A stretch of 64,000 nt of DNA from IMG/VR virus record IMGVR_UViG_3300048670_001104. The stretch is one strand, 5' to 3'. The notes beneath the pieces were generated by a model. The model was not told the DNA's origin. It saw only the letters and a program-made list of their open reading frames with translations, and did not search any database. This stretch comes from a virus (Duplodnaviria; Heunggongvirae; Uroviricota; Caudoviricetes). The translations under genes were made by a program, and so were the position numbers. Positions 3,913 to 30,469 of this stretch are shown here, one piece after another. Positions within the stretch are counted from its first letter, which is position 1, and the number at the start of each line of letters is the position of its first letter.

Positions 3913-4148
3913 GATATATCAATCTTGTCGTTGAATGAGTCGGTGTCACCAGCTTTGAGTGCAGACAGTGCCCGCATCTTCTGTTGGTATTTTCCGTTGT
4001 AGCTTTCTATAGCCATACGGATCTGATCGCAAAGATATCCATTTCCCATCCTGTGAGCAATGTTGAGTTTTTTGTGCAGTTCAGAGACCTTTGAACCCAG
4101 TTGTTCTAGGGTCATGTCCTCCAAGTTGTTGATAAACGGATGTTCCAT
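3909..4148 (-). CDS. hypothetical small protein
   Basis: 79-aa ORF. ATGA-type overlap with the 3307..3912 start. Confidence 0.45.
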   Translation of the reverse strand: MEHPFINNLEDMTLEQLGSKVSELHKKLNIAHRMGNGYLCDQIRMAIESYNGKYQQKMRALSALKAGDTDSFNDKIDIS

Positions 4149-4200
4149 TGAAACCTTTGCTGTTGTATTTTACAGCAGATGCCACTGGAAGTCAACTCAA

Positions 4201-5091
4201 TTAGGCGAATGCTGTGCCGTTGTTGCCGACGCAATACCATTTGGAGTTGATATATTGTAGAGTCACAGCTTGTCCAATTGCACTGAAAGTGATAGTGCCT
4301 GTTCCAGAGGTTTTCCATCCCGCATTGGTCACAGTGATGGTCATGTTTCCAACATACACAGCCATCATTATGGTCTTGATCTGACCGGCAAATCCTGCGG
4401 CCAGTGTGGCAGTAGATGCTCCACTGGTGGTAAGATATGTAGCGGTGGTGGTCAGGCTCACCACCCCGGCTGTGCCCACCAGGCTTTGGCTGCTGGGAAG
4501 ATAGATCGGATCCATGTTTCGGCTACTATCGAACACAGAGATTGTGGTGCCACCGTCGCTGGTGGTGAAATCGTATGTGTAAGTTCCGCTCTGAGAATAA
4601 CTTATTGTTCCTGCACTATAACCCTGTAGGTTACCGATTCCCACGCTGACCGCAGCGGGCAATACCACAGTTGATGCTGTGTTGAGGATGGTGATGGCCA
4701 CTCGAACTATACCAAAGTTGCCAGCAACCGGAAAGTTTGTAAATGCCAAAGAGATAGAACTTCCACTGCTTGCTGTGACAGTTTGATAATGTCCAGCAGT
4801 GTAATCGATGGTCACTGTGCCTGTCAAGGTTCCCAGGATGGCTGCCACAGCACTGAAGTCCGAGATGTTGGCATTGCTGAGTGGACTTCCACCCATGTTA
4901 TTGTTCAAAGCAGTACCGGTGAGTGCTGCTTTGAGTACCGCGTTGGTCTGCAGATCCGTGATCTCGTTGGCTGCATACTGAAAGTTGGTCTTGGTGTTGG
5001 TGAAGTTGTCACGGAAACCTTGACTGTTGTTGTCTTGTCCGGCTATTGGATATGTGCCGTCGATGTCGTTTGGGTTAATTGCACTGGTCAT
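4201..5091 (-). CDS. virion structural protein (tail fiber / baseplate-like, S/T/G-rich)
   Basis: 296 aa, S/T/G/N-rich beta-like composition. Located in the structural block. AGGAA RBS. ATAAATA motif about 45 nt upstream on the minus strand. Confidence 0.55.
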   Translation of the reverse strand: MTSAINPNDIDGTYPIAGQDNNSQGFRDNFTNTKTNFQYAANEITDLQTNAVLKAALTGTALNNNMGGSPLSNANISDFSAVAAILGTLTGTVTIDYTAGHYQTVTASSGSSISLAFTNFPVAGNFGIVRVAITILNTASTVVLPAAVSVGIGNLQGYSAGTISYSQSGTYTYDFTTSDGGTTISVFDSSRNMDPIYLPSSQSLVGTAGVVSLTTTATYLTTSGASTATLAAGFAGQIKTIMMAVYVGNMTITVTNAGWKTSGTGTITFSAIGQAVTLQYINSKWYCVGNNGTAFA

Positions 5092-7754: not shown

Positions 7755-7758
7755 GGCT

Positions 7759-8868
7759 TTACATTCTTCCTACGACGATTTCTATTATGCCACTTTCACC
7801 ATCAAAGTTTTCCAGGGCCTTGCCGATCACTGTGCCCATGGCCGGGGCAGCCGAGGCTCGAGCATGACCATTGCCTGCGGATATCATCATGGCACCTTTG
7901 GTCACGGCACCGGTTACACTGGTGTGAACTCTTCCGGTCAATGCCACTATGGCTCTGTGATCTGCGGTAAGTCCGTTGTTCATGAGATAACTGGGATTGG
8001 CAGATATTACACCGGCCACTGTGGGATCTCCCTCTGTGGCGGACACAGTGACTTCTTTAGTGCCGCCAAAACTCACCACAGTACCTGGCTCGTAATCTGC
8101 ATCGGCTTCATACACTTCGGCCAAGTCGGCGTAGAGTGCTGTGGTTGCTTGTGCAAATATATTGTTAAAGTATGTGCTTGTGCTGCCAATATTGCCCACG
8201 GCGTTTGATGCGCCATTCACAATGGCAGTGGCTGCTGCACCCGAGTTCACCGTGAAGGTACCCGGAGTAACTGTACTTGCACCAACAAGACTCAATGTTC
8301 CTGTTCCGGCTGCTGTACCACCAGAAGCTTGTATTCTAAAATCAAAATCAGTGGAAACATTGCCGCTGCTGTGAAAATCGATGTATGGAGTATTGGGTAT
8401 CGAGGGGCTTCCTATTTCTAGACCTGCGCTGAGACCAGGGGCTACCAATGCAGTGGTACCAGTGGCCGACAATGTGCTGGCAATGGCTACTCCAGTTGCA
8501 GAAATACTGCCGGAAAAAACGGTACCAGCAGCAGAGATCAAGCCACTGGTTAATACATTACCACCAGTGACATTGCCTGCGCTACTAACTGTGTTGATGG
8601 CCAACAGCACGCCCGGAACTATCACGTTGCCACCAGTGATGTTGCCTGTGGCACTTATTGTGTTGGTTGATATTGTTACTCCGGATGCTAATAAATTGCC
8701 GCCGGTGATGTTGCCTGTGGCAGAAATCGTGGTGGCATTGTTGGTTATAAAACTTCCCAAAGTGGCCACTGTTGTCTTGTAAGTGGCACCGCTAAAATCA
8801 ACCGGCGCCACTGTGACACTGTTAATGGTTGTAGTTTCGGGTAATCCTGATATGCTTGTGGTTGCCAT
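7759..8868 (-). CDS. tail fiber-like protein with GN-rich repeats; C-terminal ~150 aa shared with the giant fiber gene
   Basis: Repeats of the form ISATGNITGGN. The C-terminus TSTYFNNIFAQATTALYADLAEVY...GIIEIVVGRM is ~80% identical to the C-terminus of 9029..13834. Confidence 0.7.
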   Translation of the reverse strand: MATTSISGLPETTTINSVTVAPVDFSGATYKTTVATLGSFITNNATTISATGNITGGNLLASGVTISTNTISATGNITGGNVIVPGVLLAINTVSSAGNVTGGNVLTSGLISAAGTVFSGSISATGVAIASTLSATGTTALVAPGLSAGLEIGSPSIPNTPYIDFHSSGNVSTDFDFRIQASGGTAAGTGTLSLVGASTVTPGTFTVNSGAAATAIVNGASNAVGNIGSTSTYFNNIFAQATTALYADLAEVYEADADYEPGTVVSFGGTKEVTVSATEGDPTVAGVISANPSYLMNNGLTADHRAIVALTGRVHTSVTGAVTKGAMMISAGNGHARASAAPAMGTVIGKALENFDGESGIIEIVVGRM

Positions 8869-8877
8869 TGTTTTTCC

Positions 8878-9018
8878 TTAGACGGTCACTAACAGGGTAC
8901 CCGAAATCGTAGTGATGTTCAACCCACTGATAGTGGTGATTTCGGTTCCGGGCGCCGGTCCTCCTTGGAAGTTCCATCCTTGCCCTATTTGCCATCCTGC
9001 TCCTACGATTAAACTCAT
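8878..9018 (-). CDS. small ORF (46 aa) between the two fiber genes
   Basis: Hand-translated: MSLIVGAGWQIGQGWNFQGGPAPGTEITTISGLNITTISGTLLVTV. AAGGAG RBS 7 nt upstream. The tail resembles the N-terminus of the 7759..8868 product. Confidence 0.3.
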   Translation of the reverse strand: MSLIVGAGWQIGQGWNFQGGPAPGTEITTISGLNITTISGTLLVTV

Positions 9019-9028
9019 TGCTTGCTCC

Positions 9029-12000
9029 TTATAATCTTCCTACTACGATTTCTATCATGCCTTCGGTGCCGTTGAAATCTTCTAATGCCTTGCCGATCAC
9101 AGAACCTAATATGGGATTGTGCTCTGCTCGTGCTTGACCGTCACCTGTTGCGACCATCATGTCACCTTTGGCTACTGTGCCAACCACTGATGTTGGCACA
9201 CGACCGGTCAGAGCCACTGCTATTGTGTGGTCGCCTTGCAGTCCAGAATTCATCACATGTGCTGGGTTGGTACTAACCACACCGGCTACTCTGCGACTGG
9301 AATCTGTTGTACTTATTGTTACTTCTTGCGTGCCACCAAATACTACCACAGTACCTGGCTCGTAAGCAGCATCCGTGGTATACATCTCTGCCAAGTCAGC
9401 ATACAGTGCTGTGGTGGCTTGTGCAAATATTTTGTTGAAGTAGGTACTGGATGACCCGATGTTGCCCACACCATTGCCTGCACCGTTGGTGATAGCAGTG
9501 GTCGCGCTGTTGATGGTTAAGCCAGTCAATGTGCCTACTGAGGTGATATTGCCCTGTGCTGCTGTGGTCACGGTTCCAGCAACCACAGCAGTAGTGGCAT
9601 TAGCCACTGTGCCTGACACATTGGCACCTGGGATACTAGTGAGACCTGCACCAGAACCGTTGAATTGGCTTCCGGTCACTGTGCCAGTCGCAGATATCAA
9701 GCCACCTGTATTAACATTACCGGCAGTCAAGTTACCGGTTAAACTGGCACTGGTTGTGAGGATCGTACCCACAATAGTACCAATGATATTGCCACCACTG
9801 ATGTTGCCTGTCCCGGAAATGATTCCAGATCCAAATAATATGTTACCACCAGTTACATTACCTGTGGTTGTGAAACTACCAGCAGTGACGCTGCCTGTGC
9901 CCGAAATTGCTCCACCGGAACCGGTTGTGGTGATGCCAGCAGCAGTGACATTACCCACCGCACTAACACTTGATCCGGTATTGACATTACCAGTAGCTGT
10001 TACTGATCCGGTAACTGATGCACCGGTGCTGAGAAACACTGCTATATTGGAAATTCCGCCCACGGTGACGATCGCAGAGCTATTGGCCACTGGGATACTG
10101 ATAGCACTGGTTCCGTTGGCAATACCGTTGGCTGTGCTGGTCACAGTAAGACCGGTAAGACTAGCACCGTTACCTAGGATATATGACCCGATCACGTTGC
10201 CAATGGCGCTGATGTTTGTTGCAGCAGTGACGTTGCCACTTACTGATACCTGTGTGCCGGTGAAACTGGCAGCATTCACAATGTTAGTGGCAATCACATT
10301 TTGGGCATTCAGGTTACCAGTCAAGCTGGCACTGGTAGTGGCAATGGTGCCCACGATTGTGCCTATGATATTGCCACCACTGATGTTGCCTGCGGCCGAT
10401 ATTGCACCACCGGTCAATATGTTAGCACCGGTAATATTACCACTCAATGACATCTGTGTGCCGATATAACTTGATGCACTTACAATATTACCGGCAATCA
10501 CACTGCTGGCATTCAAGTTACCGGTCAAGCTGGCACTGGTTGTGGCAATTGTTCCTACAATAGTTCCTATAATATTGCCGCCGGTGATGTTGCCTGTGGC
10601 ACTTATCTGACCACTGGTTCTTAAATTACCAGCATCAACATTACCACTCACTGATACCAATGTACCGGTATGACTTGCTGCATTTACAATATTACCGGCA
10701 ATCACACTGCTGGCGGTCAGGTTGCCAGTCAAGCTGGCACTGGTTGTGGCGATGGTGCCCACGATTGTGCCTATGATATTACCACCGGTGATGTTGCCGG
10801 TTGCCGATATCACGCCGCCGGTCAACAAGTTACTGCCTGTGATATTGCCGCTTACCGATAACAACCCACCGGTGAAGCTGGCTGCATTAGATATTGTGGT
10901 AGCAATCACATTGTTGGCGTTCAAGTTACCAGTCAAGCTGGCACTGGATGTGGCAATGGTCCCCACAATGGTGCCAATTATGTTACCGCCACTGATGTTG
11001 CCGGTGGCACTGATCACGCCACCGGTTAACAAGTTGCCACCCGTGACATTGCCACTCACACTCACTGATGTGCCGGTGAAACTGGCTGCATTCACAATGG
11101 TGGTGGCAATCACATTGTTGGCATTCAAGTTACCGGTCAAACTGGCACTGGTTGTGGCAATGGTACCTAGAATTGTACCAAAGATATTTCCACCGGTGAT
11201 GTTGCCTGCTGTGCTGATGATACCAGATCCAGCCAATAAGTTGCCGCCTGTGATATTGCCCGTGGCACTGACTTGCGCTCCTGTGGTCAAGTTGCCGCCG
11301 GTGACATTGCCTGTGGCAGTGACCAATCCGCCAGTTCTTACATTTCCGGCATCAATATTACCAGTCAAGCTGGCACTGGATGTGAGGATAGTGCCAGTGA
11401 TGGTACCGTTGATATTACCACCTGTGATGTTGCCCGTGGCACTGATCTCGCCACCGGTCAATATGTTGCCACCGGTCACATTGCCTGATACAGAAACTGC
11501 GGTTCCTGTATGTGCGCCTGCAACCACGTTTCCGCTGGTGCTGATTGTGTTGGTTGAGCTAATGGGAGATGTGGTGTTGAGACTGCTCAACACATTACCA
11601 CTCAAACTCAATACAGCAGCGTTCAAATTACTACCTGTGACATTGCCACTGGTATTGACATTGCCAGCAGTCAAATTACCTGAAAGACTGATGGCTGCCA
11701 CAAGAATAGTGCCGGTGATGTTGCCATTGATATTGCCGCCGGTGATGTTGCCTGTGGCACTGATCACGCCACTGGTTAACAAGTTGCCACCTGCGACATT
11801 GCCACTCACTGACACAATGGTACCGGTATGACTGGCTGCATTTATAATATTGCCAATGCTTGCATTGTTAGCAGTGATGTTGCCACTTAAACTGGCACTG
11901 GTTGTGGCAATAGTTCCCACGATTGTGCCAATGATATTGTTACCAGTGATGTTGCCAGTGGCACTTATAACACCGCCGGTCAATATGTTACCACCGGTCA

Positions 12001-16946: not shown

Positions 16947-17489
16947 TTATAGTCTTTCTGAGCACACATCCCAGTTGATGATGCGCCAGATATTGTTGAG
17001 ATATTTCTCTTTGTCCCACTGATAGTCTGTGGCCCACACATGCTCCCACCAGTCAATAAGTACGCATATATCTGTACGCACAGCATGATTTGCGATGGTC
17101 TTGATCTCTCCACCAGTGCTGAGATATACCCAGCCGGATCCTTGGATCTTCATGGCTTTTTCTTTCACAGCGTCCTGGAATGCTTCATAACTCTTGAACT
17201 TGCGTTCAATCAGTTCTAGCACAGCACCACGCGGGCGATTTGTGCCCTTGGGCGGTTGTAGTTGTGGGAAGAATTTGTTGTGTAAGAAACTGCCAGCACG
17301 GTTGAAATCAGGATCACCTTCGCCGGCATTGTAGCGTTTGGCATAGCCCGTGGCCAGATGCCCGTAGTGATAGTTGATACTGTCTGCACTCAGCACAGGT
17401 GCCAAATCATCTGGAGAATAGGGCAGTGGAGTGGTTTCCAACTTGGTTGGACGAGTGGTGGCTTCTATGAGATCAATATGTTCACGCAT
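16947..17489 (-). CDS. Fe/Mn superoxide dismutase
   Basis: LPYSPDDLAP..INYHYGH, FLHNKFF, GSGWVYL and DWWEHVW motifs. All four metal ligands of Fe/Mn SOD (His, His, Asp, His) are present. Confidence 0.82.
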   Translation of the reverse strand: MREHIDLIEATTRPTKLETTPLPYSPDDLAPVLSADSINYHYGHLATGYAKRYNAGEGDPDFNRAGSFLHNKFFPQLQPPKGTNRPRGAVLELIERKFKSYEAFQDAVKEKAMKIQGSGWVYLSTGGEIKTIANHAVRTDICVLIDWWEHVWATDYQWDKEKYLNNIWRIINWDVCSERL

Positions 17490-17497
17490 GTGAGTAT

Positions 17498-17716
17498 TTA
17501 GCGGCGGCGAGTTATACGACCTCTGGTGAGATCATAAGGTGAGAACTCAATCAACACACGGTCACCCAGTAGGATTTTAATATCATGTTTACGCATGCGG
17601 CCAGAGATGTATCCGATCACGGGTTTTGTTACACCATCTAACTGTATACGGAACATGGTATTGGGCAGCACTTCTAGTACCTTGCCTTCTAATTCTAGTG
17701 TTTCTTCTTTGGCCAT
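17498..17716 (-). CDS. infA: translation initiation factor IF-1
   Basis: [68 protein letters not shown] aligns almost residue-for-residue with bacterial IF-1. Start set at the internal Met (ORF track 17498..17869). Confidence 0.85.
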
Positions 17717-17723
17717 TCGTGCA

Positions 17724-18176
17724 TTACTTAGCGAAACTGATCTCCGCGGTAATCTTCTGTAGCCGATCATAGCGGAAACTGCGCCAGGCATTCTGATCCA
17801 GATCATACACACGCTGTGTGACAGGATCAGGTTCCTTGCGTAGCTTTCGGCTTTCTGCAAGCCCATCAATGTTCACAGTAGAACTAGCCTCAATCTCTGT
17901 GGGCACAGGTTTGGGAGGCGCAGGTGGAATTCGACTTCGGTCCAGAGTGCATCGCATGTCTCGTACAGTGCCATCTGATTTCACAAACTGCACAGTGACT
18001 ATGGTGTTGCCCAGCAGATTCTGCACCCAGCCACGGATCTGTTTTCGGTCAGCCTCGTCGGCTTCCTGATATTGTGTGCCCGGCTGACCTTTTAGCAGCC
18101 GGAACACTTCTGCTTTTTCCCAATCTAATGTATCCATAACATCTCCTCTAAAAGTTAACGACCGTTTTTTCTTCAT
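17724..18176 (-). CDS. hypothetical protein
   Basis: 150 aa. ATGA overlap with the upstream paralog gene at 18173-18176. Confidence 0.5.
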
Positions 18177-18391
18177 GACCATCTCAGCAGAAACATTGTG
18201 TAATCTCTATTGTTTTCCCAAATACACCAATCCATGTTATCATCCGCTGGTATATCGAATTTACCCAACAATTCTCTCGCTGCTGCTCTTCGATATTCCG
18301 TTGGCAATTCCATCAGATCAGCAACAAATGGTGCCAATCGACTTTGCAATCTTGGAAACTTGGTCAGTTTATAAAATTGCATTTTAATCAT
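18173..18391 (-). CDS. small protein of FLL(K/R)W(S/Q) paralog family (copy 5)
   Basis: C-terminus ...[18 protein letters not shown]. Start trimmed to the Met whose ATG overlaps the upstream stop (ATGA). Confidence 0.5.
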   Translation of the reverse strand: MIKMQFYKLTKFPRLQSRLAPFVADLMELPTEYRRAAARELLGKFDIPADDNMDWCIWENNRDYTMFLLRWS

Positions 18392-18582
18392 TGCCACCTC
18401 AACAAGAACCATGCAGCATGTTTTTCCTCGCGGAACTCGAACACACCTTCGCCCATATACCCCCACCCATCGTCGATATGCCTACCGAATTGTTTCGAGC
18501 ACCATTCAACACAAGGTGTCCACCCTTGATTGACCAAAGGGGACATCACGCTGACCACATACCATCCGTTGACCGGGTTCAT
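18388..18582 (-). CDS. small protein of FLL(K/R)W(S/Q) paralog family (copy 4)
   Basis: ...EWCSKQFG...EKHAAWFLLRWQ. ATGA junction at 18579-18582. Confidence 0.5.
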   Translation of the reverse strand: MNPVNGWYVVSVMSPLVNQGWTPCVEWCSKQFGRHIDDGWGYMGEGVFEFREEKHAAWFLLRWQ

Positions 18583-18800
18583 GACCACCTCATCAAGAAC
18601 ATGGTCAGGTCCTGTGGTCGTTTGAAATACCACCGGCCGTTGGAATAACTATAGGTTTCGTCTGGGAAAGTCTCTGAACACCAGGCGCTTTGATCCCACA
18701 ACTCACGGTCGGGTGTGAGCGCATGGGCCGCCGGGGTGCTATGAGTCAGTCGAACTCTGCGGCGACCGTAATCAACATTCAATACAGGATTCTCTGTCAT
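18579..18800 (-). CDS. small protein of FLL(K/R)W(S/Q) paralog family (copy 3)
   Basis: ...AWCSETF...RPQDLTMFLMRWS. ATGA junction at 18797-18800. Confidence 0.5.
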   Translation of the reverse strand: MTENPVLNVDYGRRRVRLTHSTPAAHALTPDRELWDQSAWCSETFPDETYSYSNGRWYFKRPQDLTMFLMRWS

Positions 18801-19051
18801 GACCATTTCAACAGGAACCACACGTAATCTGCTTCATCACGGAACCATAAATGTTGTCCGTTTGTGTACCAACGTTCGTCGGGCAGACTCATTCTCTTTT
18901 TGGGACCATCCAGATGCGTAATGCTGCTGGTAGTTTGGCCAAACTGTTCGTCACACCACCGCACTTGTGTGCTCCATTCTTTTCCACCATTGGGAACAAG
19001 TATAGTATAATAAGGTCGGCCGTATACTGTGCTTTGTTCGTTTGTGTTCAT
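18797..19051 (-). CDS. small protein of FLL(K/R)W(S/Q) paralog family (copy 2)
   Basis: ...RWCDEQFG...DEADYVWFLLKWS. ATGA junction at 19048-19051. Confidence 0.5.
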   Translation of the reverse strand: MNTNEQSTVYGRPYYTILVPNGGKEWSTQVRWCDEQFGQTTSSITHLDGPKKRMSLPDERWYTNGQHLWFRDEADYVWFLLKWS

Positions 19052-19341
19052 GACCACTTCAATAAAAACATGGTTCTGTCTGCTTCATTGCGGAACCAAT
19101 ACTTACGATCACTGCCCACCCAGAGTCCATGTTCGGTCATCCAATCACCGTTGCCGAATGTGATCACTACCCAATCTCCCATCTTATCCCACTCCTTACG
19201 AGAGTAGTTGCATGGCTGGACCCAATAGGGCCATCGAGTTTGATTGTCAGCATAACCAGTTTCAAGGCGTTTCATGGTGAGTTGGGCTATAGTATCCGTT
19301 ATTTCATCTACCCACTTGGCGGTGAATCCCTTGTTGGTCAT
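19048..19341 (-). CDS. small protein of FLL(K/R)W(S/Q) paralog family (copy 1)
   Basis: ...NEADRTMFLLKWS. ATGA junction at 19338-19341. Confidence 0.5.
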   Translation of the reverse strand: MTNKGFTAKWVDEITDTIAQLTMKRLETGYADNQTRWPYWVQPCNYSRKEWDKMGDWVVITFGNGDWMTEHGLWVGSDRKYWFRNEADRTMFLLKWS

Positions 19342-19727
19342 CGACGCATTGAGGCGGCGTCTATTGCTTGTTGCTGGTTGAACACCGGCTGCAAACAAGA
19401 TTTATGTAGGACAGTCACTCCAATGATCTCAGTGCCTGTATAAACTTTCACATTGGGCGTGGTGTCATGCCCTGCTGTGACCCTGCTGGGGATGTGATGA
19501 GTGTTGGTGCGACCCACTGGCGTTTCCAGTCGATACACCAAGGGCTCTGCTTTCATAGCACGGGCTTGTTTTTTCTTTTCTGCTTCCACACCTTGACGTT
19601 TCAGCAGTTCCTTCCACTCAGTATCAAGTTCGCGGGCCTTCTGGGCTTCAGCAGCATTACGGTATTTGAACTTGCCCTTTTTCTTGCCGTTGAGACTTAG
19701 GGCAGGGCCGCACATGTGCATGGTCAT
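19338..19727 (-). CDS. hypothetical protein (first gene of the promoter-driven operon)
   Basis: 129 aa. GGAG RBS. Directly downstream of the promoter at 19754..19782. Confidence 0.5.
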   Translation of the reverse strand: MTMHMCGPALSLNGKKKGKFKYRNAAEAQKARELDTEWKELLKRQGVEAEKKKQARAMKAEPLVYRLETPVGRTNTHHIPSRVTAGHDTTPNVKVYTGTEIIGVTVLHKSCLQPVFNQQQAIDAASMRR

Positions 19728-19753: not shown

Positions 19754-19782
19754 ATTATAGCACAGCTGGAATTACTGGTCAA
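19754..19782 (-). promoter_or_regulatory. sigma70-type promoter TTGACC-N17-TATAAT
   Basis: Plus strand reads tattatagcac...ggtcaac. On the minus strand this is TTGACC, 17-nt spacer, TATAAT. Confidence 0.7.
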
Positions 19783-19785
19783 CGA

Positions 19786-20100
19786 CTATTTGAACAGGAT
19801 CAGCGCCATTAGAACAGCCTGCACAATGAATCCAGTACCCACCGTGACTATGTTCAGCATGTCTTTGAGCACCACAGCCCGCATGAACAGCAACACCAAA
19901 CCGGCCCACATGAACAGCACAATATCTAAACTGGGTGTGCGATCACTCAGCCCAGTCATCAGGGCAAGCAAAGTTGGAACTGTGGCAGCATGTAGAACCA
20001 ACGCAGCCATCCATTGCAGGGTCTCTGCTGAAAGTCTGGGCAAGTGTTCCTGCAGCCAAGTGAGCACAGATTTTGGCCAGTTTTGCGGTTCAAAGGTCAT
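19786..20100 (-). CDS. membrane protein (holin/pinholin candidate), translationally coupled to the cell-wall hydrolase
   Basis: 104 aa from MTFEPQNW. Two to three hydrophobic helices. ATGA overlap with the hydrolase stop at 20097-20100. Confidence 0.5.
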   Translation of the reverse strand: MTFEPQNWPKSVLTWLQEHLPRLSAETLQWMAALVLHAATVPTLLALMTGLSDRTPSLDIVLFMWAGLVLLFMRAVVLKDMLNIVTVGTGFIVQAVLMALILFK

Positions 20101-20669
20101 GTTTTTTCTCCATAAAAGATATGATGTCCGATTTTCTCTAACCGGGGCTTTTTCCAACCCGGATTCACATAGTCAGCGTGATAGTAAAGTGCGTCTTTTA
20201 ATCCGGGCAAGCGGAATCCTTCCAACAGCACTTTCTTGGCCACTTCTTCACTTTCGTTCCAAAGAGGTCGGTGGATCACTTTGCCGGGATTTCCTCTTTC
20301 ACAGAACCATGAGAACTGGCACACCACTTTTTCGTAAAACACATTTTTCTGATATACCACCGCACACACAGAACTGGCAAACCGGCCAGACTCCACGCGG
20401 TTCATGGTGACTTGTGCCACACCCACTTTGCCTTCAAATGGTTCGTTTGCAGCTTCCCAGTAGATGTTGCGTGTGAGGCAATCTAGTTCTCGAGTGCGTT
20501 GAGCAGCACTGATGTAGCCTGTGGGTAGGTCGACCGATTGTTCACGCAGTGTTTCAAATCGGGCAGAAGTTACAGCACATACCACATAGATCACTGCCGC
20601 CAGGCCAAAGGCCTTCAGCAGATATGAACCGTAGCGTTGTGCCAGAGAGGATAGTTGATTTGCTTTCAT
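20097..20669 (-). CDS. SleB-type cell wall hydrolase (Hydrolase_2 family) with N-terminal signal-anchor; endolysin candidate
   Basis: CLTRNIYWEAANEPFEGKVGVAQVTMNRV...VCAVVYQKN...QFSWFCERG matches the SleB/cell-wall-hydrolase family. N-terminal hydrophobic G/A-rich helix LLKAFGLAAVIYVVCAV. The track start 20702 is GTG, so I use the ATG at 20669. Confidence 0.75.
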   Translation of the reverse strand: MKANQLSSLAQRYGSYLLKAFGLAAVIYVVCAVTSARFETLREQSVDLPTGYISAAQRTRELDCLTRNIYWEAANEPFEGKVGVAQVTMNRVESGRFASSVCAVVYQKNVFYEKVVCQFSWFCERGNPGKVIHRPLWNESEEVAKKVLLEGFRLPGLKDALYYHADYVNPGWKKPRLEKIGHHIFYGEKT

Positions 20670-20749
20670 GGTAGTGTTACTTACTGAAATGGGCAAAATC
20701 ACCCGGGATATCGAATCAAAACAGTATGGTTTTGGTCGATCACATGTGT

Positions 20750-20777
20750 ATTATACACTCACCAGTCGAATTTGCAA
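20750..20777 (-). promoter_or_regulatory. sigma70-type promoter TTGCAA-N16-TATAAT
   Basis: Plus strand gtgtattatacac ... tttgcaaacc. Upstream of the hydrolase gene. Confidence 0.55.
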
Positions 20778-21550
20778 ACCGGGATCGGCAACATCTTGTG
20801 TAGATTTGCGGCGCGGATCTCACGGTATCGGCGAAGATTTTTCTTTTCTTGTGCGGAGTCTACACCACAGTTGGTTTCGGCTTGAGTCATAGCCAGTTCC
20901 AATTCAGGATAGGTCATGCCCAGTTGATCTTGATCGGTGCGGCCATCTGTCCACAATCCATCTGTAGGGGGTGCATCAATGATCTCTTGTGGCAGGCCCA
21001 GTTCACGACCCATGTCCCACACCGCAGTTTTCATGCAGTCACCAATGGGGCTGATATCCACACCGCCGTCGCCATACTTGGTAAAAAAGCCCACACCAAA
21101 GTCTTCCACTCGGTTGCCTGTGCCCACAACAATACCGCGGTTGCATTGTGCGATCTGATACAGAGTCATCATACGCAATCTAGCACGACTGTTGGCACTG
21201 GCCAACTGGTATGTTCCGTGTGTGTCATCTTCGATATCACAGTAGGGATCTACCTTCTTTTCAAATGCAGCAAACACAGGAGTGAGATCCATACTCATGT
21301 GTGTGACTGTGTCTGCATGGCGTTCCAGCAACCAACTGGCCTGCATGGAACTGCAATTGTCCAAGGTTCGGTTTTGCCGGATGGGCATCTGCACCACGAT
21401 GGTTTTGAGTCCAGTTCTAGCACACAATGCACTCACCACACTACTATCAATACCACCAGAGATACCCACCACCAGTGTGTTGATTTTGGCACTGCGGGCA
21501 TAGCTCTTGATCCACTTCACGATGGTGGTGATGCGTTGTTTGGGTGTCAT
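20759..21550 (-). CDS. nadE: NH3-dependent NAD+ synthetase
   Basis: PP-loop GISGGIDSS. GTGNRVEDFGVGFFTKYGDGGVDISPIGD...LGLPQEIIDAPPTDGLW matches NadE. Start set at the Met forming an ATGA junction with the upstream stop. Confidence 0.85.
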   Translation of the reverse strand: MTPKQRITTIVKWIKSYARSAKINTLVVGISGGIDSSVVSALCARTGLKTIVVQMPIRQNRTLDNCSSMQASWLLERHADTVTHMSMDLTPVFAAFEKKVDPYCDIEDDTHGTYQLASANSRARLRMMTLYQIAQCNRGIVVGTGNRVEDFGVGFFTKYGDGGVDISPIGDCMKTAVWDMGRELGLPQEIIDAPPTDGLWTDGRTDQDQLGMTYPELELAMTQAETNCGVDSAQEKKNLRRYREIRAANLHKMLPIPVCKFDW

Positions 21551-22128
21551 AGTTTTGGCTTGGGCAACTTCTTCAAGGCTTCCCACATCTTGGTTTTCTC
21601 TTGGCATTTCTTCTCCAGTTTTCTATAGCGTTCGCCCAGGCGGCGTAGGTCGTCCCATTCCTTTTCCAGTTCAGGATTGGGTGTGAGGATGTTCAGTCGT
21701 TGTTCCACCTGTTCCATCCACTTGTTCATGCTCTTGCCGTTGATCCGGATGTCGGCCTTTTCGCCTTTTATATCGATCTGCCCGGATTGTTCAACCTTCA
21801 TGTTATAGTCGGTGGCGGATGAGCCGATATTCAAGCCGGTGCCGGTAGTGGTCAGCGTTTGATAAGGAGAGTTGTTGGTATACACATTCGGACTCAGGCC
21901 GATATGACCCACCTGATGTATTCCACCTGTGGCACTCTGGGCAGCAGTGATTTGACCCCAGGGCATACTGGACTCTCTGCTGGATATGTTCCACTCATCA
22001 TACTCCTGCAGGTTCTTCACTGCCGACGCAAGACCTCGCATGCGGCTCCTCATGTTGGCCTCGGCCTCCTGAACCTTGCTATTGAACTCTTTCGAGGTCA
22101 ACGGACCAATAGTCGCCGGGTCGATCAT
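21547..22128 (-). CDS. hypothetical protein
   Basis: 193 aa with a coiled-coil-like C-terminus. ATGA junctions on both sides. Confidence 0.5.
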   Translation of the reverse strand: MIDPATIGPLTSKEFNSKVQEAEANMRSRMRGLASAVKNLQEYDEWNISSRESSMPWGQITAAQSATGGIHQVGHIGLSPNVYTNNSPYQTLTTTGTGLNIGSSATDYNMKVEQSGQIDIKGEKADIRINGKSMNKWMEQVEQRLNILTPNPELEKEWDDLRRLGERYRKLEKKCQEKTKMWEALKKLPKPKL

Positions 22129-24168: not shown

Positions 24169-24594
24169 TTAGTTTGCAATCAAAGGTGGAATCCTGCTCA
24201 TCGCAGACCATATCTGACCGTTGGGAATATCGTGCTCTTGATACCCTTCGAATATCATATCTAAATATCCCCTACTGGGGCCACAATCCAGATTATCAGG
24301 TTGCATCCTATAACATTCTGCCATGATGATATTGCCTTGATATTCAACTGGCAATACTGCACGATCGTAATATGAGGGATACCCTTCTAGCATATCCAAA
24401 TCCTCTAGATGTTCTTCATCAATTAGCCATAGCACCCCGTCCACAGCTTCTCCTGCCCGTGCCACAACATCAGCATGATGGCTGAATCTAAACTCATGAT
24501 CCAACAATCGAGCGTGACCAAAAGAGATGGCACCAGGGCACCTCCAGGTCATGCTGGATCGATTGGTATTCATTCCGTAGGCAAAATAGAACAT
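24169..24594 (-). CDS. gamma-glutamyl cyclotransferase-like (AIG2/GGCT fold)
   Basis: N-terminal MFYFAYGMNTNRSSM...ARL motif matches the YFAYGSNL signature of GGCT. Confidence 0.6.
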   Translation of the reverse strand: MFYFAYGMNTNRSSMTWRCPGAISFGHARLLDHEFRFSHHADVVARAGEAVDGVLWLIDEEHLEDLDMLEGYPSYYDRAVLPVEYQGNIIMAECYRMQPDNLDCGPSRGYLDMIFEGYQEHDIPNGQIWSAMSRIPPLIAN

Positions 24595-25562
24595 TCTTCT
24601 GTAATAAGATCAGGGTTAGCGTATTTTACGATTTTGGGTGCTTTTGGAATTTTTACTTTTTTAGGTTTTTTGTGGTTTGGGATTTCGCCACGTTCTTTAA
24701 CACTTTTATCTTTACCTTCCAGAGCTAGTTTAGCGTTGAGCGCCGCTGAAAAATCTTTTATTACTTCATTGTCAATACGGTCTTGTGCAGTTGCACAATA
24801 CTCTTTGCTCATGTCAATGCCTAAATATCGCCTTCCAGTTCTTTCAGCAACAAAGGTGGTGGTGCCTGCTCCGTTGAATGGATCAAGTATTACATCGTTT
24901 TGGAAGGAGAACATCTTCAATGCTCTGTATGCTAGTTCTGTCGGAAACATAGCAGGGTGGCCATAGTCTTTCATATTGCGTTCAGGAGCAATGCTCCATT
25001 TGGCATCGGCCCAGGTCTTAAACTCATTGCCGGTGATATCGGCCAACACACTATCTCCATTGTGCTTGAGTTCACCTTTGCAAAATACTTCCAGGAACTC
25101 CCAGGTGTATTTAAAATATGGGCCACTGGGACTCTTCCAAGAGCCCCATGCACAATAAGCACAGTTCCTGTGATTTTTTTCCCAAAGTATTTCGGCCTTC
25201 CAGATAAGTCCACGATCAATGAATCCTTTTGAGATTAGATGATGACTGGGAATATACTCACTAAACAACGGCTGGGTGTTGACAATGATTCGGCCTCCGT
25301 GTTTTACTACTCGGATGCACTCGTCAAAAATTTCCCAAAGCATATTAAAATACGATGGCCAATCGGTCTCATCGTCGTGAGTGTCATATCCCATCCCAAA
25401 GTTATAAGGTGGTGATGTGAATACTAGGTCTACGCAATTGTCAGGCAGTTGTTTCAACACACTCAAGCTGTCGGCGTTAACAATTTGATTAGTATATTGA
25501 AGAGGAAAATCGTTATTTTGTTTTGAGAATTCTTTGGTATAGCTTTTGTAGCCGGCGGCCAT
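24570..25562 (-). CDS. DNA methyltransferase (N6-adenine or N4-cytosine, beta class)
   Basis: Motif IV DLVFTSPPY precedes motif I LDPFNGAGTT (FxGxG). AAGGA RBS. Confidence 0.85.
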   Translation of the reverse strand: MAAGYKSYTKEFSKQNNDFPLQYTNQIVNADSLSVLKQLPDNCVDLVFTSPPYNFGMGYDTHDDETDWPSYFNMLWEIFDECIRVVKHGGRIIVNTQPLFSEYIPSHHLISKGFIDRGLIWKAEILWEKNHRNCAYCAWGSWKSPSGPYFKYTWEFLEVFCKGELKHNGDSVLADITGNEFKTWADAKWSIAPERNMKDYGHPAMFPTELAYRALKMFSFQNDVILDPFNGAGTTTFVAERTGRRYLGIDMSKEYCATAQDRIDNEVIKDFSAALNAKLALEGKDKSVKERGEIPNHKKPKKVKIPKAPKIVKYANPDLITEECSILPTE

Positions 25563-27393: not shown

Positions 27394-27652
27394 CCGGTTT
27401 TGTGGATTTGGGCGCAGGCCAGGGAGTGTGCGGGTCAACAGGTGTTGCGACCAGATCCGGATCTCGTGGATGTTGGAAATCTGGATTCAGTGCGGTGTGG
27501 TGACTGATCCAGGTATACACTGACCACTGCACCGGTTGCCACCATCGTGCGAACATGTTGTTGATCACGATGATAGTGGCTGCTGCTGTGATGGCTGCAA
27601 AGCCCAGCAGGATAAAACAAAGAAACATGTTGGTTGCTGATTCAATACTCAT
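27377..27652 (-). CDS. hypothetical membrane protein
   Basis: 91 aa with an N-terminal TM helix FLCFILLGFAAITAAATIIVI. Confidence 0.4.
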   Translation of the reverse strand: MSIESATNMFLCFILLGFAAITAAATIIVINNMFARWWQPVQWSVYTWISHHTALNPDFQHPRDPDLVATPVDPHTPWPAPKSTKPVDAKG

Positions 27653-27957
27653 GATAGATCCTCTTGATTGGTTAGTCCGTTGCTGCGTCGATCTCTGGGC
27701 TCTTCTATGTTCTGATCAAACCTCTTTTGTTTTATAGTTGGCTCCCCTAAAACTTTTGCACTTGAACAAAGCAAACATTGTGGATTGCCGCAATCCATGG
27801 CATGTTGCTTGGCTAGTCGATGTGGATTTTTAACATTCTTATCATCTGATGAGCCGTGTGCTCGGGCGATCTTCAGTTGCTTGTTGATAGCGTTGTCGTC
27901 TTTGAGCAATCGCTTGCTGTGTTTGAATCGGTCTTGTTCTGTGCTCATTATTGCCAC
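27649..27957 (-). CDS. hypothetical protein
   Basis: 102-aa basic ORF. ATGA junction at 27649-27652. Confidence 0.45.
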   Translation of the reverse strand: MAIMSTEQDRFKHSKRLLKDDNAINKQLKIARAHGSSDDKNVKNPHRLAKQHAMDCGNPQCLLCSSAKVLGEPTIKQKRFDQNIEEPRDRRSNGLTNQEDLS

Positions 27958-28181
27958 TTCAATAAAAATGCGAAATAATCTCGGTCACTGTCAAAATAAA
28001 AAATATATCTACCTGGTTGTTGATGGCTGCTCATCTCTACCAGTTGCCATCGCCAATCACCTACCAGTTCGTCTTTGCACCACTCAATCACATGATCCAG
28101 GATGCCTGTTTTCTTTTTGAGTTCATGTGAGTATTCGAAACTTTCCTGGTTGCGTATAACATAATTTTCTAAAACTTGCAT
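27948..28181 (-). CDS. small protein of FLL(K/R)W(S/Q) paralog family (distal copy)
   Basis: ...EWCKDELVG...DRDYFAFLLKWQ. Confidence 0.5.
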   Translation of the reverse strand: MQVLENYVIRNQESFEYSHELKKKTGILDHVIEWCKDELVGDWRWQLVEMSSHQQPGRYIFYFDSDRDYFAFLLKWQ

Positions 28182-28206: not shown

Positions 28207-28446
28207 CTACCTCTGCCACTTTAGGCTGTAAAAGGTTGCCTGGGCAGGATCCCGGAATCCAATGATCACTTTTCTTATATTTTTTCCAAGCAGTGACCAT
28301 TCGTTTATGGTAACTGGATCCGCAACCTTGGGTATGTAGCACCAAGTGAAATCCTGGTCCAGGACTAATCCAGCATCTCGCAATGCCCAAGCCATCTCCA
28401 TACCTCGAGAGGCTGTGGCCCCTTCAATCACCACTTCAGACCACAT
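28207..28446 (-). CDS. small protein related to the FLL(K/R)W(S/Q) family (divergent)
   Basis: ...TWCYIPKV...PAQATFYSLKWQR. Confidence 0.45.
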   Translation of the reverse strand: MWSEVVIEGATASRGMEMAWALRDAGLVLDQDFTWCYIPKVADPVTINEWSLLGKNIRKVIIGFRDPAQATFYSLKWQR

Positions 28447-29129: not shown

Positions 29130-29809
29130 CAGTCCCAAAGTGATTGGAAATAAACACCAAACAGTCGGAATCCGTTCTGTATGCGTTTCTCTACCACTCG
29201 CATGCCGTCGTAATCGCACTGGTAGGTGTGGTTGGGGCCGTCTTCTGTTTCATACAGCAAGGCCTTGCCGGTGTCGGGATCACTCTTGGCCACCTTCCAC
29301 TTCCAGTCGATCTCACCGGAACGATAGGCATCTTCCCAGGAGTCATCCAGTTTGCATTCAAACGCAAAGATCATCTCATCCAGCACCCAATCCCAACGAC
29401 GAAAGTGATTGTCGTCAGTGTCCCATTCGTTTTCTTTGGGACCGGCTTCTGTGCTACGCAGATTCATTCCCTCGGGCACATCTTCGTCATCTACCAAGGG
29501 AGCACCATGTTTGTCCTTCTTCAACTGTTTGAGCATGGGCAAGATTATATAGGCCAAGGTGTGATCCATGCTCCAGGTATCGTAGCGGTCAATCTTCACA
29601 TACTCGATCCGGGGATGCACAAAGTCCAAGAACTTCATCCAGGCACCACATACGGGGCTCAAGCGATCCACCCACTTTTGATACTTGTGGTTGGGTTCGT
29701 TGAGATGATTGTAAAAAACATCGTCATCTTTTTCCCAGAAGCAAACTGCTTTGAGGATGGTGTAAGGGCTGACCCAGTGATTGCGGTAGCCACTCATGTA
29801 TACTTTCAT
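29129..29809 (-). CDS. hypothetical protein (W/D/E-rich)
   Basis: 226-aa ORF. ATGA junction at 29806-29809. Confidence 0.55.
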   Translation of the reverse strand: MKVYMSGYRNHWVSPYTILKAVCFWEKDDDVFYNHLNEPNHKYQKWVDRLSPVCGAWMKFLDFVHPRIEYVKIDRYDTWSMDHTLAYIILPMLKQLKKDKHGAPLVDDEDVPEGMNLRSTEAGPKENEWDTDDNHFRRWDWVLDEMIFAFECKLDDSWEDAYRSGEIDWKWKVAKSDPDTGKALLYETEDGPNHTYQCDYDGMRVVEKRIQNGFRLFGVYFQSLWD

Positions 29810-30081
29810 TCTTTTACTCCAAAGTGATCTCTAACATTCATAGTGGCAATGACCAAGGCATTGTTCCACTGGGTGTATTTGTTGTCGGCTGATTCGCTTA
29901 ATTCAGCGAACTTGTCTCCTGATAACTGGCCCACGATCCGTGTTCCTGCCACCTGGTCGATACATTCGTTCACGATCAGTTCAGCAAACTTGGCGGATGT
30001 AAAATCGGAATAGTCAGTGCCCTCGGCACCAAAGCGAGCACCAGCCTTGTGTAAAAGTAGATCTATTAGTTTTTGTTTCAT
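29806..30081 (-). CDS. hypothetical protein, paralog of 30078..30281
   Basis: Shares FAELIVNECIDQVAG and the C-terminal (R)DHFGVKE with the next gene. Confidence 0.5.
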   Translation of the reverse strand: MKQKLIDLLLHKAGARFGAEGTDYSDFTSAKFAELIVNECIDQVAGTRIVGQLSGDKFAELSESADNKYTQWNNALVIATMNVRDHFGVKE

Positions 30082-30281
30082 AGTTCAACTCCAAAATGTT
30101 CTCTAATGTCATCACCCATGGTTCCACCGCCCGCCTGCCGCTCACGCAGGATATGATCCACCCGGCCAGCACATTCTTTCACAATCAACTCGGCGAACTT
30201 TTGCCTATCAAAGATTCTTTCTTGCCCATTACTATAATAGTCAGTGGCCTGTCTCTCAAGTTGTCTAATTCTTTCGTTCAT
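30078..30281 (-). CDS. hypothetical protein, paralog of 29806..30081
   Basis: FAELIVKECAGRVDHI...REHFGVEL. Confidence 0.5.
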   Translation of the reverse strand: MNERIRQLERQATDYYSNGQERIFDRQKFAELIVKECAGRVDHILRERQAGGGTMGDDIREHFGVEL

Positions 30282-30469
30282 TCTTCAACCTTACGGATTT
30301 CCCAAGTGCCATCCTCACGGTCAACCCACTTCAAGTTGTCGCCGGGATTCCACCCCACTTCATCCAGCATGTCCTGCGGGAATGGTAGCACAAGGTCACC
30401 ACTTCCGTCGTCGGCTTCTTCAAGGGTCACTGTCCATGATTTCGTTGCTTCAGTCATACTACACCTCAA
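30278..30469 (-). CDS. small AbrB/MazE/SpoVT-like swapped-hairpin protein (tentative)
   Basis: 63 aa. ...VTLEEADDGSGDLVLPFPQDMLDEVGWNPGDNLKWV pattern. Confidence 0.4.
   Translation of the reverse strand: MRCSMTEATKSWTVTLEEADDGSGDLVLPFPQDMLDEVGWNPGDNLKWVDREDGTWEIRKVEE

Follow-up and report, generated by a model that had tools for sequence, protein, structure and literature searches.

Within a 64-kb window of viral DNA (the whole stretch that we analysed), five small genes, g5 to g1, form a minus-strand chain (18173..19341, all with ATG starts on inspection of the open reading frames) whose products end in tails that fit (M/W)FL(L/M)(R/K)W(S/Q). On balance, we consider this locus to be probably best explained as a coupled accessory array in an uncultured jumbo phage, built from members of a phage-only domain family, with a C-terminal tail that is dual-coded and genes that act as swappable cassettes. 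Under this explanation the locus would be part of a translationally coupled array of accessory genes, probably early, in which related phages would gain, lose and replace whole cassettes, with breakpoints at the gene junctions.

The chain begins with a gene of 129 residues (19338..19727, minus strand; phrog_27048), whose stop overlaps the start of g5 in CGATGA. It continues on the same strand through g5 (97 residues, 19048..19341; tail MFLLKWS, junction AAGTGGTCATGA), g4 (84 residues, 18797..19051; tail WFLLKWS, junction AAATGGTCATGA), g3 (73 residues, 18579..18800; tail MFLMRWS, junction AGGTGGTCATGA), g2 (64 residues, the minimal domain, 18388..18582; tail WFLLRWQ, junction AGGTGGCAATGA) and the partial member g1 (72 residues, 18173..18391; tail MFLLRWS, junction AGATGGTCATGA). 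A last ATGA links g1 to a WYL_2-domain gene (17724..18176, minus strand; Pfam PF10902, E = 5e-11), which may in this way be translationally coupled to it, and genes for a phage IF-1 (PF01176) and an Fe/Mn SOD (PF02777) follow on the same strand. Six successive ATGA overlaps are thereby present from 19341 to 18173, counting those of g5 with the gene before it and of g1 with the WYL_2 gene. The first-pass annotation had described five tandem paralogous ORFs chained start on stop; all five are present and family-related, and every junction of g5 to g1 has the 4-nt ATGA overlap. Its proposal that TGGTCATGA generates the ATG of the next gene is likewise borne out, four of the junctions reading TGGTCATGA and that of g2 TGGCAATGA, but it overlooked a nucleotide-level signal in the (R/K)-W codons. 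The pattern ARRTGGNNATGA occurs five times in the window, against 1.26 occurrences expected by chance, and all five are array junctions. A frameshift fusion across ATGA was considered and dropped because, as read from the sequence, TGGTCATGA contains no slippery heptamer.

Two further copies lie about 9 kb away on the minus strand, as had been reported: g7 (79 residues, 28207..28446), a divergent member with the tail FYSLKWQR* and a TAG stop, and, after a 25-nt spacer, g6 (77 residues, 27948..28181; tail FLLKWQ*). The TAA stop of g6 overlaps the next ATG by 1 nt (TAATG) and so may couple it to a downstream gene that is not a family member and has no Pfam match (MSTEQDRF..., 27649..27945, minus strand). 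Upstream stops thus lie over downstream starts at the six ATGA sites and at the TAATG after g6. The W-C-x-(E/K)-x-F block that had been ascribed to the array is found in g2, g3 and g4 only, the corresponding residues being WCKDEL in g6, WVVITF in g5 and WCIWEN in g1.

A predicted sigma-70-type promoter heads the chain (19754..19782, minus strand; TTGACC-17-(TG)CTATAAT), matching 11 of 12 consensus hexamer positions and carrying an extended -10 TG. The related loci L125 and L004 have the same two hexamers and the same GGAGAAC ribosome site, in contrast to the sequence upstream of the -35, which diverges in L125. We infer that this promoter is active, and no terminator-like sites were found on the minus strand between 19750 and 17000. 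A promoter conserved base for base in two relatives fits early transcription by the host RNA polymerase, in agreement with the earlier placement of the locus in an early region, and the array is probably expressed early.

Whether the copies constitute one family was assessed with profile HMMs. In leave-one-out searches each of the seven copies ranks first among the 957 ORFs of the window (E = 2e-8 to 7e-4; g7, 6.7e-4), and when the tail is trimmed only g4, g3 and g2 still rank first, a within-window result that is weak on its own. An external profile was therefore of particular interest: it comprises 41 sequences, none from the window and some of them close orthologues of window genes (e.g. 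g6), and the last 7-8 residues were cut from model and queries alike. This tail-less model matches g2 (1.2e-16), g4 (3.5e-13), g5 (3.8e-9), g6 (7e-8) and g3 (2e-6), and has no match to g1 or g7. The expectation that all seven copies align beyond the C-terminal peptide accordingly holds for g2 to g6 and fails for g1 and g7, which share little beyond the tail. The match of g1 to the family HMM is confined to the tail; this gene retains WC and the C-terminal helix, apparently without the central FG...beta-hairpin core, and its body has no orthologue among the 130+ loci fetched. Pairwise identity among the window copies is 16-34%, whereas five of the seven (g2 to g6) have their own orthologues in related phages at 44-81% identity; g7 also has orthologues of its own (P0069, P0078 and others). 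Four columns are invariant across the family (W, C, F and W), all far from the tail, and the conserved motifs of the domain are W..WC..FG, RW, F.F..E.D and F.L(R/K)W.

Searches of curated collections returned little. None of the seven copies matches Pfam better than E = 0.1 or has a match in NCBIfam 20, and in PHROGs v4 the single match is of the N-terminus of g7 to phrog_12903 (E = 0.009). Ten further members and the Phosso proteins described below have no PHROG match, and 47 diverse members have no curated family in common. All homologues in sets of 420 and 722 are labelled 'hypothetical'. The family comprises at least 916 cluster representatives (50% identity, E <= 1e-3), and for almost all the 150 representatives listed the match ends no more than a few residues short of the C-terminus; a scan of the genomes of 185,579 species with a narrow sub-alignment gave only one match. 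Neither megablast with the region nor tblastn with g4 and g2 found a match among 50,697 phage records; a more consensus-like member gave weak matches that led to a cluster in the cultured, 469-kb Sinorhizobium phage Phosso, whose hypothetical proteins 570-579 include distant members (E = 1.6e-13 and 2.4e-11 against the family HMM). A literature search on FLLRW-like motif strings returned no relevant work. The family is phage-restricted and consists of Trp-rich proteins of 55-145 residues; on sequence evidence, it is a paralogous small-protein family in phage with no prior annotation.

The conserved part lies at the very C-terminus and is predicted to form a compact domain of two layers (beta-alpha-beta-beta-alpha). 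The AF2 model of g2 has this topology (pLDDT 94.8, pTM 0.81) and shares it with the model of g4 (pLDDT 73.7), which reads beta-beta-alpha-beta-beta-alpha. The F, L and W residues of the last helix probably pack on the sheet, a placement that derives only from their amphipathic spacing. UniProt/BFVD entry A0A6J7WFP6 ('Uncharacterized protein [uncultured Caudovirales phage]') resembles g2 at a TM of 0.82 and 43% identity; it and Phosso 570-579 are true relatives, none of them annotated. Unlike the array proteins, the Phosso members continue beyond the helix, one to an LRYKGT end and the other for about 35 more residues, and they lack the AGG-TGG-NNATGA junction.

We examined codon use at the tail across 323 members, with those that seeded the search excluded; the loci were found via the junction pattern itself, and neighbouring genes in one array are not fully independent in these statistics. 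An overlap with the next gene is present in 79% of members (ATGA 59%, TAATG/TGATG 11%, GTGA/TTGA 9%). The Arg before the terminal Trp is encoded by AGG in 144/191 cases (75%) compared with 86/985 (9%) of the remaining Arg residues in these genes (Fisher p = 4e-81), the final codon takes the form NNA (TCA, GCA, TTA, ACA, CTA, GGA, GTA, CAA) although the residue varies, and AGG use falls from 63% with an ATGA overlap to 22% without one (p = 6e-7). These three observations therefore point to AGG-UGG-NNA-UGA as a Shine-Dalgarno-like site combined with the next start. Family-wide, the final codons of the upstream gene do contain an SD-like sequence that is under selection at the nucleotide level. 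In the window AGG occurs at the junctions of g3 and g2 only (2/5, the others being AAG, AAA and AGA), and the Shine-Dalgarno argument is therefore mainly a family-wide one; SD-like 4-mers precede 27/70 window genes, compared with 14% of random positions. At the RNA level, AGG-UGG-NNA-UGA would give a Shine-Dalgarno-like GAGG/AGGUGG 5 nt ahead of the stop-overlapping AUG, an AGG-to-AUG spacing of about 5 nt being near the lower limit of what is usual; at the protein level, the same conserved tail would double as the last helix of the domain. Translational coupling would then operate at the junctions, and each gene would carry the initiation signals for whichever gene comes next and so be a self-contained cassette.

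Comparison with related phages, which have arrays of 7-15 genes at the same position, suggests that such cassettes move. L004 has 15 chained genes there, most ending in ...L(K/R)W(S/A/L)*. Relative to L125, DNA homology stops exactly at the g5 stop and returns 11 nt before the g3 ATG, then stops again at the g2 stop and returns 10 nt before the WYL_2 ATG; two other cassettes replace g4 in L125, and another two replace g1. Across L125, L129 and L004, the ends of homology blocks fall 0-21 nt from junctions in nine of ten cases, and the array differences between relatives amount to whole-cassette gain, loss or replacement. Since DNA homology breaks at junctions, cassettes have been swapped. The junction itself may be the recombination substrate, and the identical runs there are only about 9-14 nt long; where genes abut, any viable indel should leave its breakpoints at gene boundaries, and the observed pattern is compatible with junction-mediated recombination without requiring it. 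The relatives reach 347.5 kb (the g6 orthologues P0068 and P0103 are on contigs of 256 kb and 347.5 kb) and carry cyanophage-type auxiliary genes, and one relative encodes heme oxygenase and bilin reductase.

Family members are under purifying selection: dN/dS between orthologues is 0.18-0.60 for g2 to g5 and below 1 in every computable pair. By gene, it is 0.18-0.26 for g5 (orthologues in L125, L129 and L004), 0.26 for g4 (L004; not found at the corresponding position in L125 or L129), 0.24 for g3 (L129, 81% identity) and 0.60 for g2 (L125); for g6 it is not computable, as synonymous sites are saturated. The first gene of the chain, 85-91% identical to its L004 and L125 orthologues, has a dN/dS of 0.10-0.14. 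DNA alignment shows that L125 also has an intact g3 orthologue of 70 residues, left uncalled by the source pipeline, and this rules out L125 5846-6001 as a g3 pseudogene remnant.

The first-pass annotation had read the array as the product of rapid local duplication of a host-takeover or anti-defence family, and a recent expansion of this kind, diverging in an arms race, is rather unlikely in our assessment. It would account for the tandem layout behind a sigma-70-type promoter, for differences in array content between close relatives with 85-91% identity in the flanks, and for member dN/dS values (0.18-0.60) that exceed the 0.10-0.20 of flanking genes. However, paralogues that are only 16-34% identical, with orthologues of g2 to g6 in other phages, are not fresh copies, and the 196 adjacent member pairs from about 110 viral loci have a median identity of 38%, with no pair above 80%; by these sequence comparisons the paralogues are old. 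A dN/dS below 1 in all computable pairs also argues against this view. As to takeover, no known anti-defence or takeover family was matched in Pfam, PHROGs or NCBIfam, and the seven copies are not the strongly acidic proteins expected of an Ocr/Arn-like DNA mimic (pI 5.2-7.9, net charge -4.2 to +0.5; family median pI 5.7). For a variable early accessory array a candidate role in host takeover or anti-defence is nonetheless plausible, and our low-confidence guess at a biochemical role is that these proteins are a diversified set of binders or adaptors with host or phage partners.

The tail could instead be a mere by-product of an RNA-level need for a Shine-Dalgarno site and an overlap, making the 'family' a convergent set of unrelated ORFs. 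Such convergence would suit the strong AGG and NNA nucleotide bias, as well as g1, g7 and several L004 cassettes (62, 122, 123 and 130 residues) that have only the tail in common, yet we regard it as decidedly improbable: five of the seven window copies match the tail-less external profile (E = 1e-16 to 2e-6), the invariant residues lie away from the tail, a common fold is predicted with high confidence, the (K/R)W ending is kept in 49/72 members (68%) without an overlapping start, and in Phosso the domain occurs without the junction. Very unlikely, in our view, is descent from PCD/DCoH-like or RuBisCO-associated (RbcS-/acRAF-like) proteins as divergent cyanophage auxiliary metabolic genes. 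A faint match of g2 to RuBisCO_small (E = 0.14), a JGI label 'RuBisCO small subunit' on one member (P0365) and the relative with heme oxygenase and bilin reductase hint at it, and the models do show the beta-beta-alpha-beta-beta-alpha fold of PCD/DCoH (PDB 2ebb, 1uso), but the resemblance to these structures and to acRAF (4low) is one of fold only. Sequence identity to them is 5-7%, the family profile matches no PDB sequence at E <= 10, g2 scores 12.7 bits against a 27-bit gathering threshold for PF00101 while the other six copies have no match, and 5-20 divergent copies per genome are unlike either an enzyme or RbcS. The PCD active site has conserved His residues, whereas the invariant columns of this phage-only family with a Trp-rich core include no His; membership of PCD/DCoH or RbcS/acRAF was rejected, for PCD/DCoH for want of a profile match and an invariant His and for the RuBisCO small subunit on the sub-threshold score. 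That the ORFs are spurious or decaying is extremely unlikely. g1 does look as if it had suffered an internal deletion, the fetched loci contain no orthologue of it, and the gene callers of the source records mis-call starts and miss members, but dN/dS for g2 to g5 is well below 1, conserved clusters number in the hundreds, the predicted fold is confident, and the unbroken, in-register overlap chain is conserved across phages.

The coupled, swappable array that we favour has a partial precedent in the hyperplastic regions of T4-type phages, where modular shuffling is mediated by PeSLs, intergenic promoter and stem-loop units that make each cassette its own transcription unit (Arbiol et al. 2010, PMC2839356; Comeau et al. 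2014, PMC4122927). Common to both are small, mostly ORFan, non-essential genes, insertion, deletion and replacement between close relatives, a T4-related myovirus-like context, and a short repeated motif with an expression function that bounds these events, although here selection for intact abutting genes could also explain the boundaries. Unlike PeSL cassettes, each with an intergenic sigma-70 promoter and stem-loop terminator, the array has no intergenic DNA and one promoter-like site (19782..19754) for the whole chain, and its motif is coding (last helix plus ATGA) and would act in translation rather than transcription, with recombination at the motif being our reading. An ATGA stop/start overlap with a Shine-Dalgarno sequence inside the upstream gene is a general feature of bacterial and phage operons, and the array shares with it the 4-nt overlap and an SD-like run of purines over the final codons of the upstream cistron. 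What sets the array apart is that the signal sits in the conserved C-terminal motif that defines the family and is repeated at each junction in arrays of 5-20 genes, with an AGG bias (75% versus 9%) tied to the overlapping start.

A stronger version of this reading, which we consider improbable, is that the tail and junction constitute a plug-and-play adapter, serving at once as helix, ribosome-binding site, start codon and recombination site, for an integron-like shuffling of ORFs without an integrase. Jumbo phages would then insert and shuffle ORFs within one co-translated early operon, and the common domain would be a scaffold presenting variable N-terminal peptides. Some cassettes of relatives (for example P0257; L004 12736-13071) contain about 30 residues copied from that N-terminal part of the T4-type major capsid protein where conservation is highest (Pfam Gp23 positions 2-48). 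As a lead only, this segment may correspond to the Gol region, a binder of EF-Tu and trigger of the Lit abortive-infection protease (review PMC3014915). Cassettes bearing the segment could be decoys for capsid-sensing defences or modulators of translation factors.

These observations describe a large unannotated, phage-specific domain family that comprises at least 916 clusters (50% identity) and reaches 20 copies at a locus, and such proteins account for a noticeable part of the 'dark matter' in the genomes of aquatic jumbo phages. The tail is a clean case, with strong statistics, of a single short motif selected at the protein and mRNA levels at once, and its dual coding is relevant to codon-usage and dN/dS analyses and to gene callers, which mis-call these arrays. 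If the junction mediates exchange, it would explain how long co-translated accessory arrays are built and reshuffled without regulatory DNA, and would give the design of synthetic polycistronic phage constructs a simple rule to follow.

Five consecutive small open reading frames lie on the minus strand of the window, as the first-pass annotation had claimed, each beginning with ATG and each start overlapping the previous stop as ATGA: g5 (19048..19341, 97 aa), g4 (18797..19051, 84 aa), g3 (18579..18800, 73 aa), g2 (18388..18582, 64 aa) and g1 (18173..18391, 72 aa). The chain continues both ways past these genes: an upstream 129-aa gene (19338..19727, minus strand) ends CGATGA on the g5 start, and the start of a downstream WYL_2-domain gene (17724..18176, minus) is overlapped by the g1 stop. 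All five occurrences of the junction pattern ARRTGGNNATGA in the 64-kb window (1.26 expected) are array junctions. The two further copies reported about 9 kb away were also found, namely g6 (27948..28181, minus), whose stop overlaps the next ATG (TAATG), and g7 (28207..28446, minus), which ends KWQR* with a 25-nt spacer after it. The W-C-x-(E/K)-x-F block said to unite all five array genes is present in g2, g3 and g4 only.

Kinship among the seven copies was assessed with leave-one-out HMMs, in which each copy ranked first against 957 other six-frame window ORFs (E 2e-8 to 7e-4); trimming eight C-terminal residues left just g4, g3 and g2 in first place. In a stricter test, the profile was built from 41 external sequences and no window sequences, and the conserved C-terminal tail was cut from model and queries alike. 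This profile, some rows of which are close orthologues (e.g. of g6), recovered g2 (1.2e-16), g4 (3.5e-13), g5 (3.8e-9), g6 (7e-8) and g3 (2e-6), and did not recover g1 or g7. Similarity beyond the C-terminal pentapeptide, on which the proposed relationship hung, was thus recovered for g2-g6 and not for the other two, and g2-g6 are homologous along the full length of the domain. The family member g7 has diverged strongly and has orthologues of its own. g1 keeps just WC and the last helix, its central FG...hairpin segment seems to have been lost, and its body has no orthologue among the fetched loci.

Neither the seven copies nor 47 diverse relatives match Pfam, PHROGs or NCBIfam, and word-seeded searches returned 420 and 722 proteins, every one labelled “hypothetical”. 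When 1.84 billion cluster representatives were searched exhaustively with HMMER, 916 matched at E<=1e-3; among the 150 listed, matched proteins are 53-146 aa long and in nearly all the profile ends at most a few residues from the C-terminus. The family consensus is W..(M/I)..WC...FG(P)...RW(Y)....F(W/E)F(R)xExDxTxFxL(R/K)W(S), with W, W, F and W invariant and C, F and L near-invariant; the proteins are mildly acidic to neutral and contain 4-9% Trp, a residue that makes up 1.4% of long window ORFs. Genomes of 185,579 bacterial and archaeal species gave a single occurrence of the g2 subfamily, located on a 1.5-kb MAG contig, and the family is therefore essentially viral; every neighbour in BFVD is an “uncultured Caudovirales phage” protein. 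Public gene calls cannot be relied on for these arrays: the related contig L125 has an intact g3 orthologue (5843..6055) that was left uncalled, and many g2-type entries (e.g. P0097, P0023, P0050) open with a spurious stretch, VVFQTTTGPDHVLDEVV, that comes from reading the upstream tail in another frame.

The array had been attributed to rapid local duplication, a reading not supported by the identity of the window paralogues, only 16-34%. Across about 110 loci, adjacent member pairs (n = 196) have a median identity of 38%, with none above 80%; the arrays are cassette mosaics, not fresh duplicates. Their flanks are constant in related contigs (NAD synthase, cell-wall hydrolase and the 129-aa gene on one side; WYL_2, IF-1 and superoxide dismutase (SOD) on the other) and their contents differ: g5, g4, g3, g2 and g1 in the window; g5-like, 78 aa, 96 aa, g3-like, g2-like, 95 aa and 85 aa in L125 (a 117-kb ENA contig); g5-like, 89 aa and g3-like in L129 (87 kb); and 15 chained genes in L004 (347.5 kb, NCBI assembly GCA_050655815.1), most ending ...L(K/R)W(S/A/L)* and some with bodies unlike the family. 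In blastn between window and L125, homology stops exactly at the g5 stop (19048) and restarts 11 nt before the g3 ATG, and a second block stops at the g2 stop (18388) and restarts 10 nt before the WYL_2 start. L129 and L004 follow the same pattern, such that 9 of 10 block ends in the comparisons with relatives fall within 21 nt of a junction.

These block ends fit recombination inside the conserved junction; selection that keeps abutting genes intact, however, would produce an identical pattern, and we therefore only infer junction recombination as the step by which cassettes may have been exchanged. Among described phenomena, the array most resembles PeSL-mediated modular shuffling in the hyperplastic regions of T4-type phages (PMC2839356, PMC4122927), but there the repeated element is an intergenic promoter-terminator and here it is a junction that is coding and acts in translation. 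ATGA chaining recurs in another tandem small-gene family (...KFAELIV.EC...HFGV(E/K)(E/L)*), unrelated to the first, with two window copies (29809..30084 and 30081..30284, minus) and seven consecutive copies in L129 (2893..4608) joined by a GAAGAATGA junction. These phages may generally place conserved C-termini at overlapping junctions.

A degenerate junction pattern was used to fetch 120 viral loci, which were scanned with the family HMM and gave 442 members (up to 20 per locus-strand), and codon and overlap statistics were limited to the 323 members not themselves matching the seed pattern. Gene ends in this set carry an ATGA overlap in 59% of cases, against a crude background of 18% in long ORFs, TAATG/TGATG in 11% and GTGA/TTGA in 9%. 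The Arg codon preceding the terminal Trp is AGG in 144/191, compared with 86 of the 985 other Arg codons in these genes (p 4e-81). As their last codon the genes use TCA, GCA, TTA, ACA, CTA, GGA, GTA or CAA; the residue varies and the third-base A, which makes the overlapping ATG, is constant. AGG makes up 63% of the K/R codon with an ATGA overlap and 22% without an overlapping start (p 6e-7), whereas the (K/R)W ending is retained in 49 of 72 genes without one. The tail is hence dual-coded, with the helix serving the protein and the codon choice serving the message. The motif (G)AGG-UGG sits 5 nt ahead of the AUG and looks like the AAGGA-type sites found ahead of 39% of window genes (14% at random positions). 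In the window array itself, AGG is used only in g3 and g2, with AAG in g5, AAA in g4 and AGA in g1.

A near-consensus promoter, TTGACC-17-TGcTATAAT, is predicted at 19782..19754 (minus strand), and both it and a GGAGAAC ribosome site are conserved in L125 and L004. L125 differs upstream, where a 403-aa radical-SAM gene (3388..4599), absent in the window and L004, is inserted immediately before the promoter; homology with the window restarts at the -35 hexamer, and the promoter therefore also marks a module boundary. No terminator-like site was found on the minus strand between promoter and SOD gene, which, with promoter conservation, supports a predicted single host-polymerase (early-type) transcript of the 129-aa gene, the array, WYL_2, IF-1 and SOD. 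The WYL_2 gene, then the phage translation initiation factor IF-1 (17498..17716, minus, ~72 aa) and the Fe/Mn SOD (together 16947..18176, minus) share the array's orientation and are apparently co-transcribed with it; the trio also lies downstream of the array in L004 and L125, where SOD is followed by a gene for Fe-S biogenesis (PF01521).

The array genes are real: paired with their orthologues on three related contigs (44-81% amino-acid identity), they have dN/dS of 0.18-0.60, against 0.10-0.20 for the flanking 129-aa and WYL_2 genes. The AlphaFold2 model of g2 (65-sequence alignment; pLDDT 94.8, pTM 0.81) places a short strand before helix 22-32, hairpin 40-44/47-50 and helix 53-63, and that of g4 is beta-beta-alpha-beta-beta-alpha with a disordered insert (pLDDT 73.7). 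We read the modelled fold as DCoH-like in topology, a resemblance confined to the fold. Nothing in the sequence points to catalysis, because the invariant residues are aromatic core residues.

Variation is concentrated in two places, an N-terminal extension and the helix 1-hairpin loop, and longer relatives carry distinct N-terminal peptides. In a Gp23-like subfamily (proteins P0257, P0161, P0235 and P0262, and L004 12736..13071), about 30 N-terminal residues (..LLPIIRRTLPNLIAsQIVGVQPM..) are joined to the domain; the start of Pfam Gp23 is matched at 28-31 bits (cut-off 24.4) by four of the five, and far more weakly, at 12 bits, by P0262. By tblastn, the N-terminal 48 residues of P0257 match major capsid genes in 630 T4-like phage records. 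The fused segment is a piece of capsid protein copied onto a small accessory protein. It falls in the N-terminal stretch of the capsid protein that is best conserved; the Gol region, gp23's most conserved according to a review, binds EF-Tu and triggers Lit (PMC3014915), and a possible correspondence between the two is offered as a lead only. A second subfamily (L004 11731..12099; P0184, P0187, P0190, P0172, P0212, P0214, P0266, P0267) carries a ...(K)PGE...(A/S)GRQxGKS... segment that has no match in Pfam or other databases and by eye resembles a P-loop or terminase Walker-A region. P0151 (141 aa, metagenomic) holds two family domains in one polypeptide, the first tail (FILKWL) continuing into the second copy, and looks like a fused cassette pair. 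Our best guess, held with low confidence, is that the domain is a scaffold or adaptor presenting variable segments to host or phage partners.

A comparison with 50,697 phage records gave no near DNA match to the window, and its relatives are ~340-350 kb in size. Its genes include tail-fibre genes, a DNA methylase, NadE, UDP-glucose dehydrogenase and an AAA/Lon-like protein; notable cargo at 20097..21607 and 24169..25562 (minus) includes a SleB-type cell-wall hydrolase, NH3-dependent NAD synthase, a gamma-glutamyl cyclotransferase-like protein and an N6/N4 DNA methylase. NadE is closest (~52%) to pelagi- and cyano-myophage NadE, with that of pelagiphage HTVC008M (52%) the closest. The L129 array adjoins DnaK/HSP70, HSP20, ClpS, heme oxygenase and ferredoxin-dependent bilin reductase (6451..10411), and these cyanophage-type auxiliary genes hint at a cyanobacterial host for the clade.

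The family is new to curated databases, yet not categorically new biology. Distant members (E 1.6e-13 and 2.4e-11), lacking the terminal RW-stop junction, are clustered in the 469-kb cultured jumbo phage Phosso of Sinorhizobium (PV764938.1, 405682..409750), with at least two clear and several possible members, all annotated hypothetical; the cluster is flanked by threonyl-tRNA synthetase and ADP-ribosyl glycohydrolase. This cultured phage offers an experimentally tractable way into the family.
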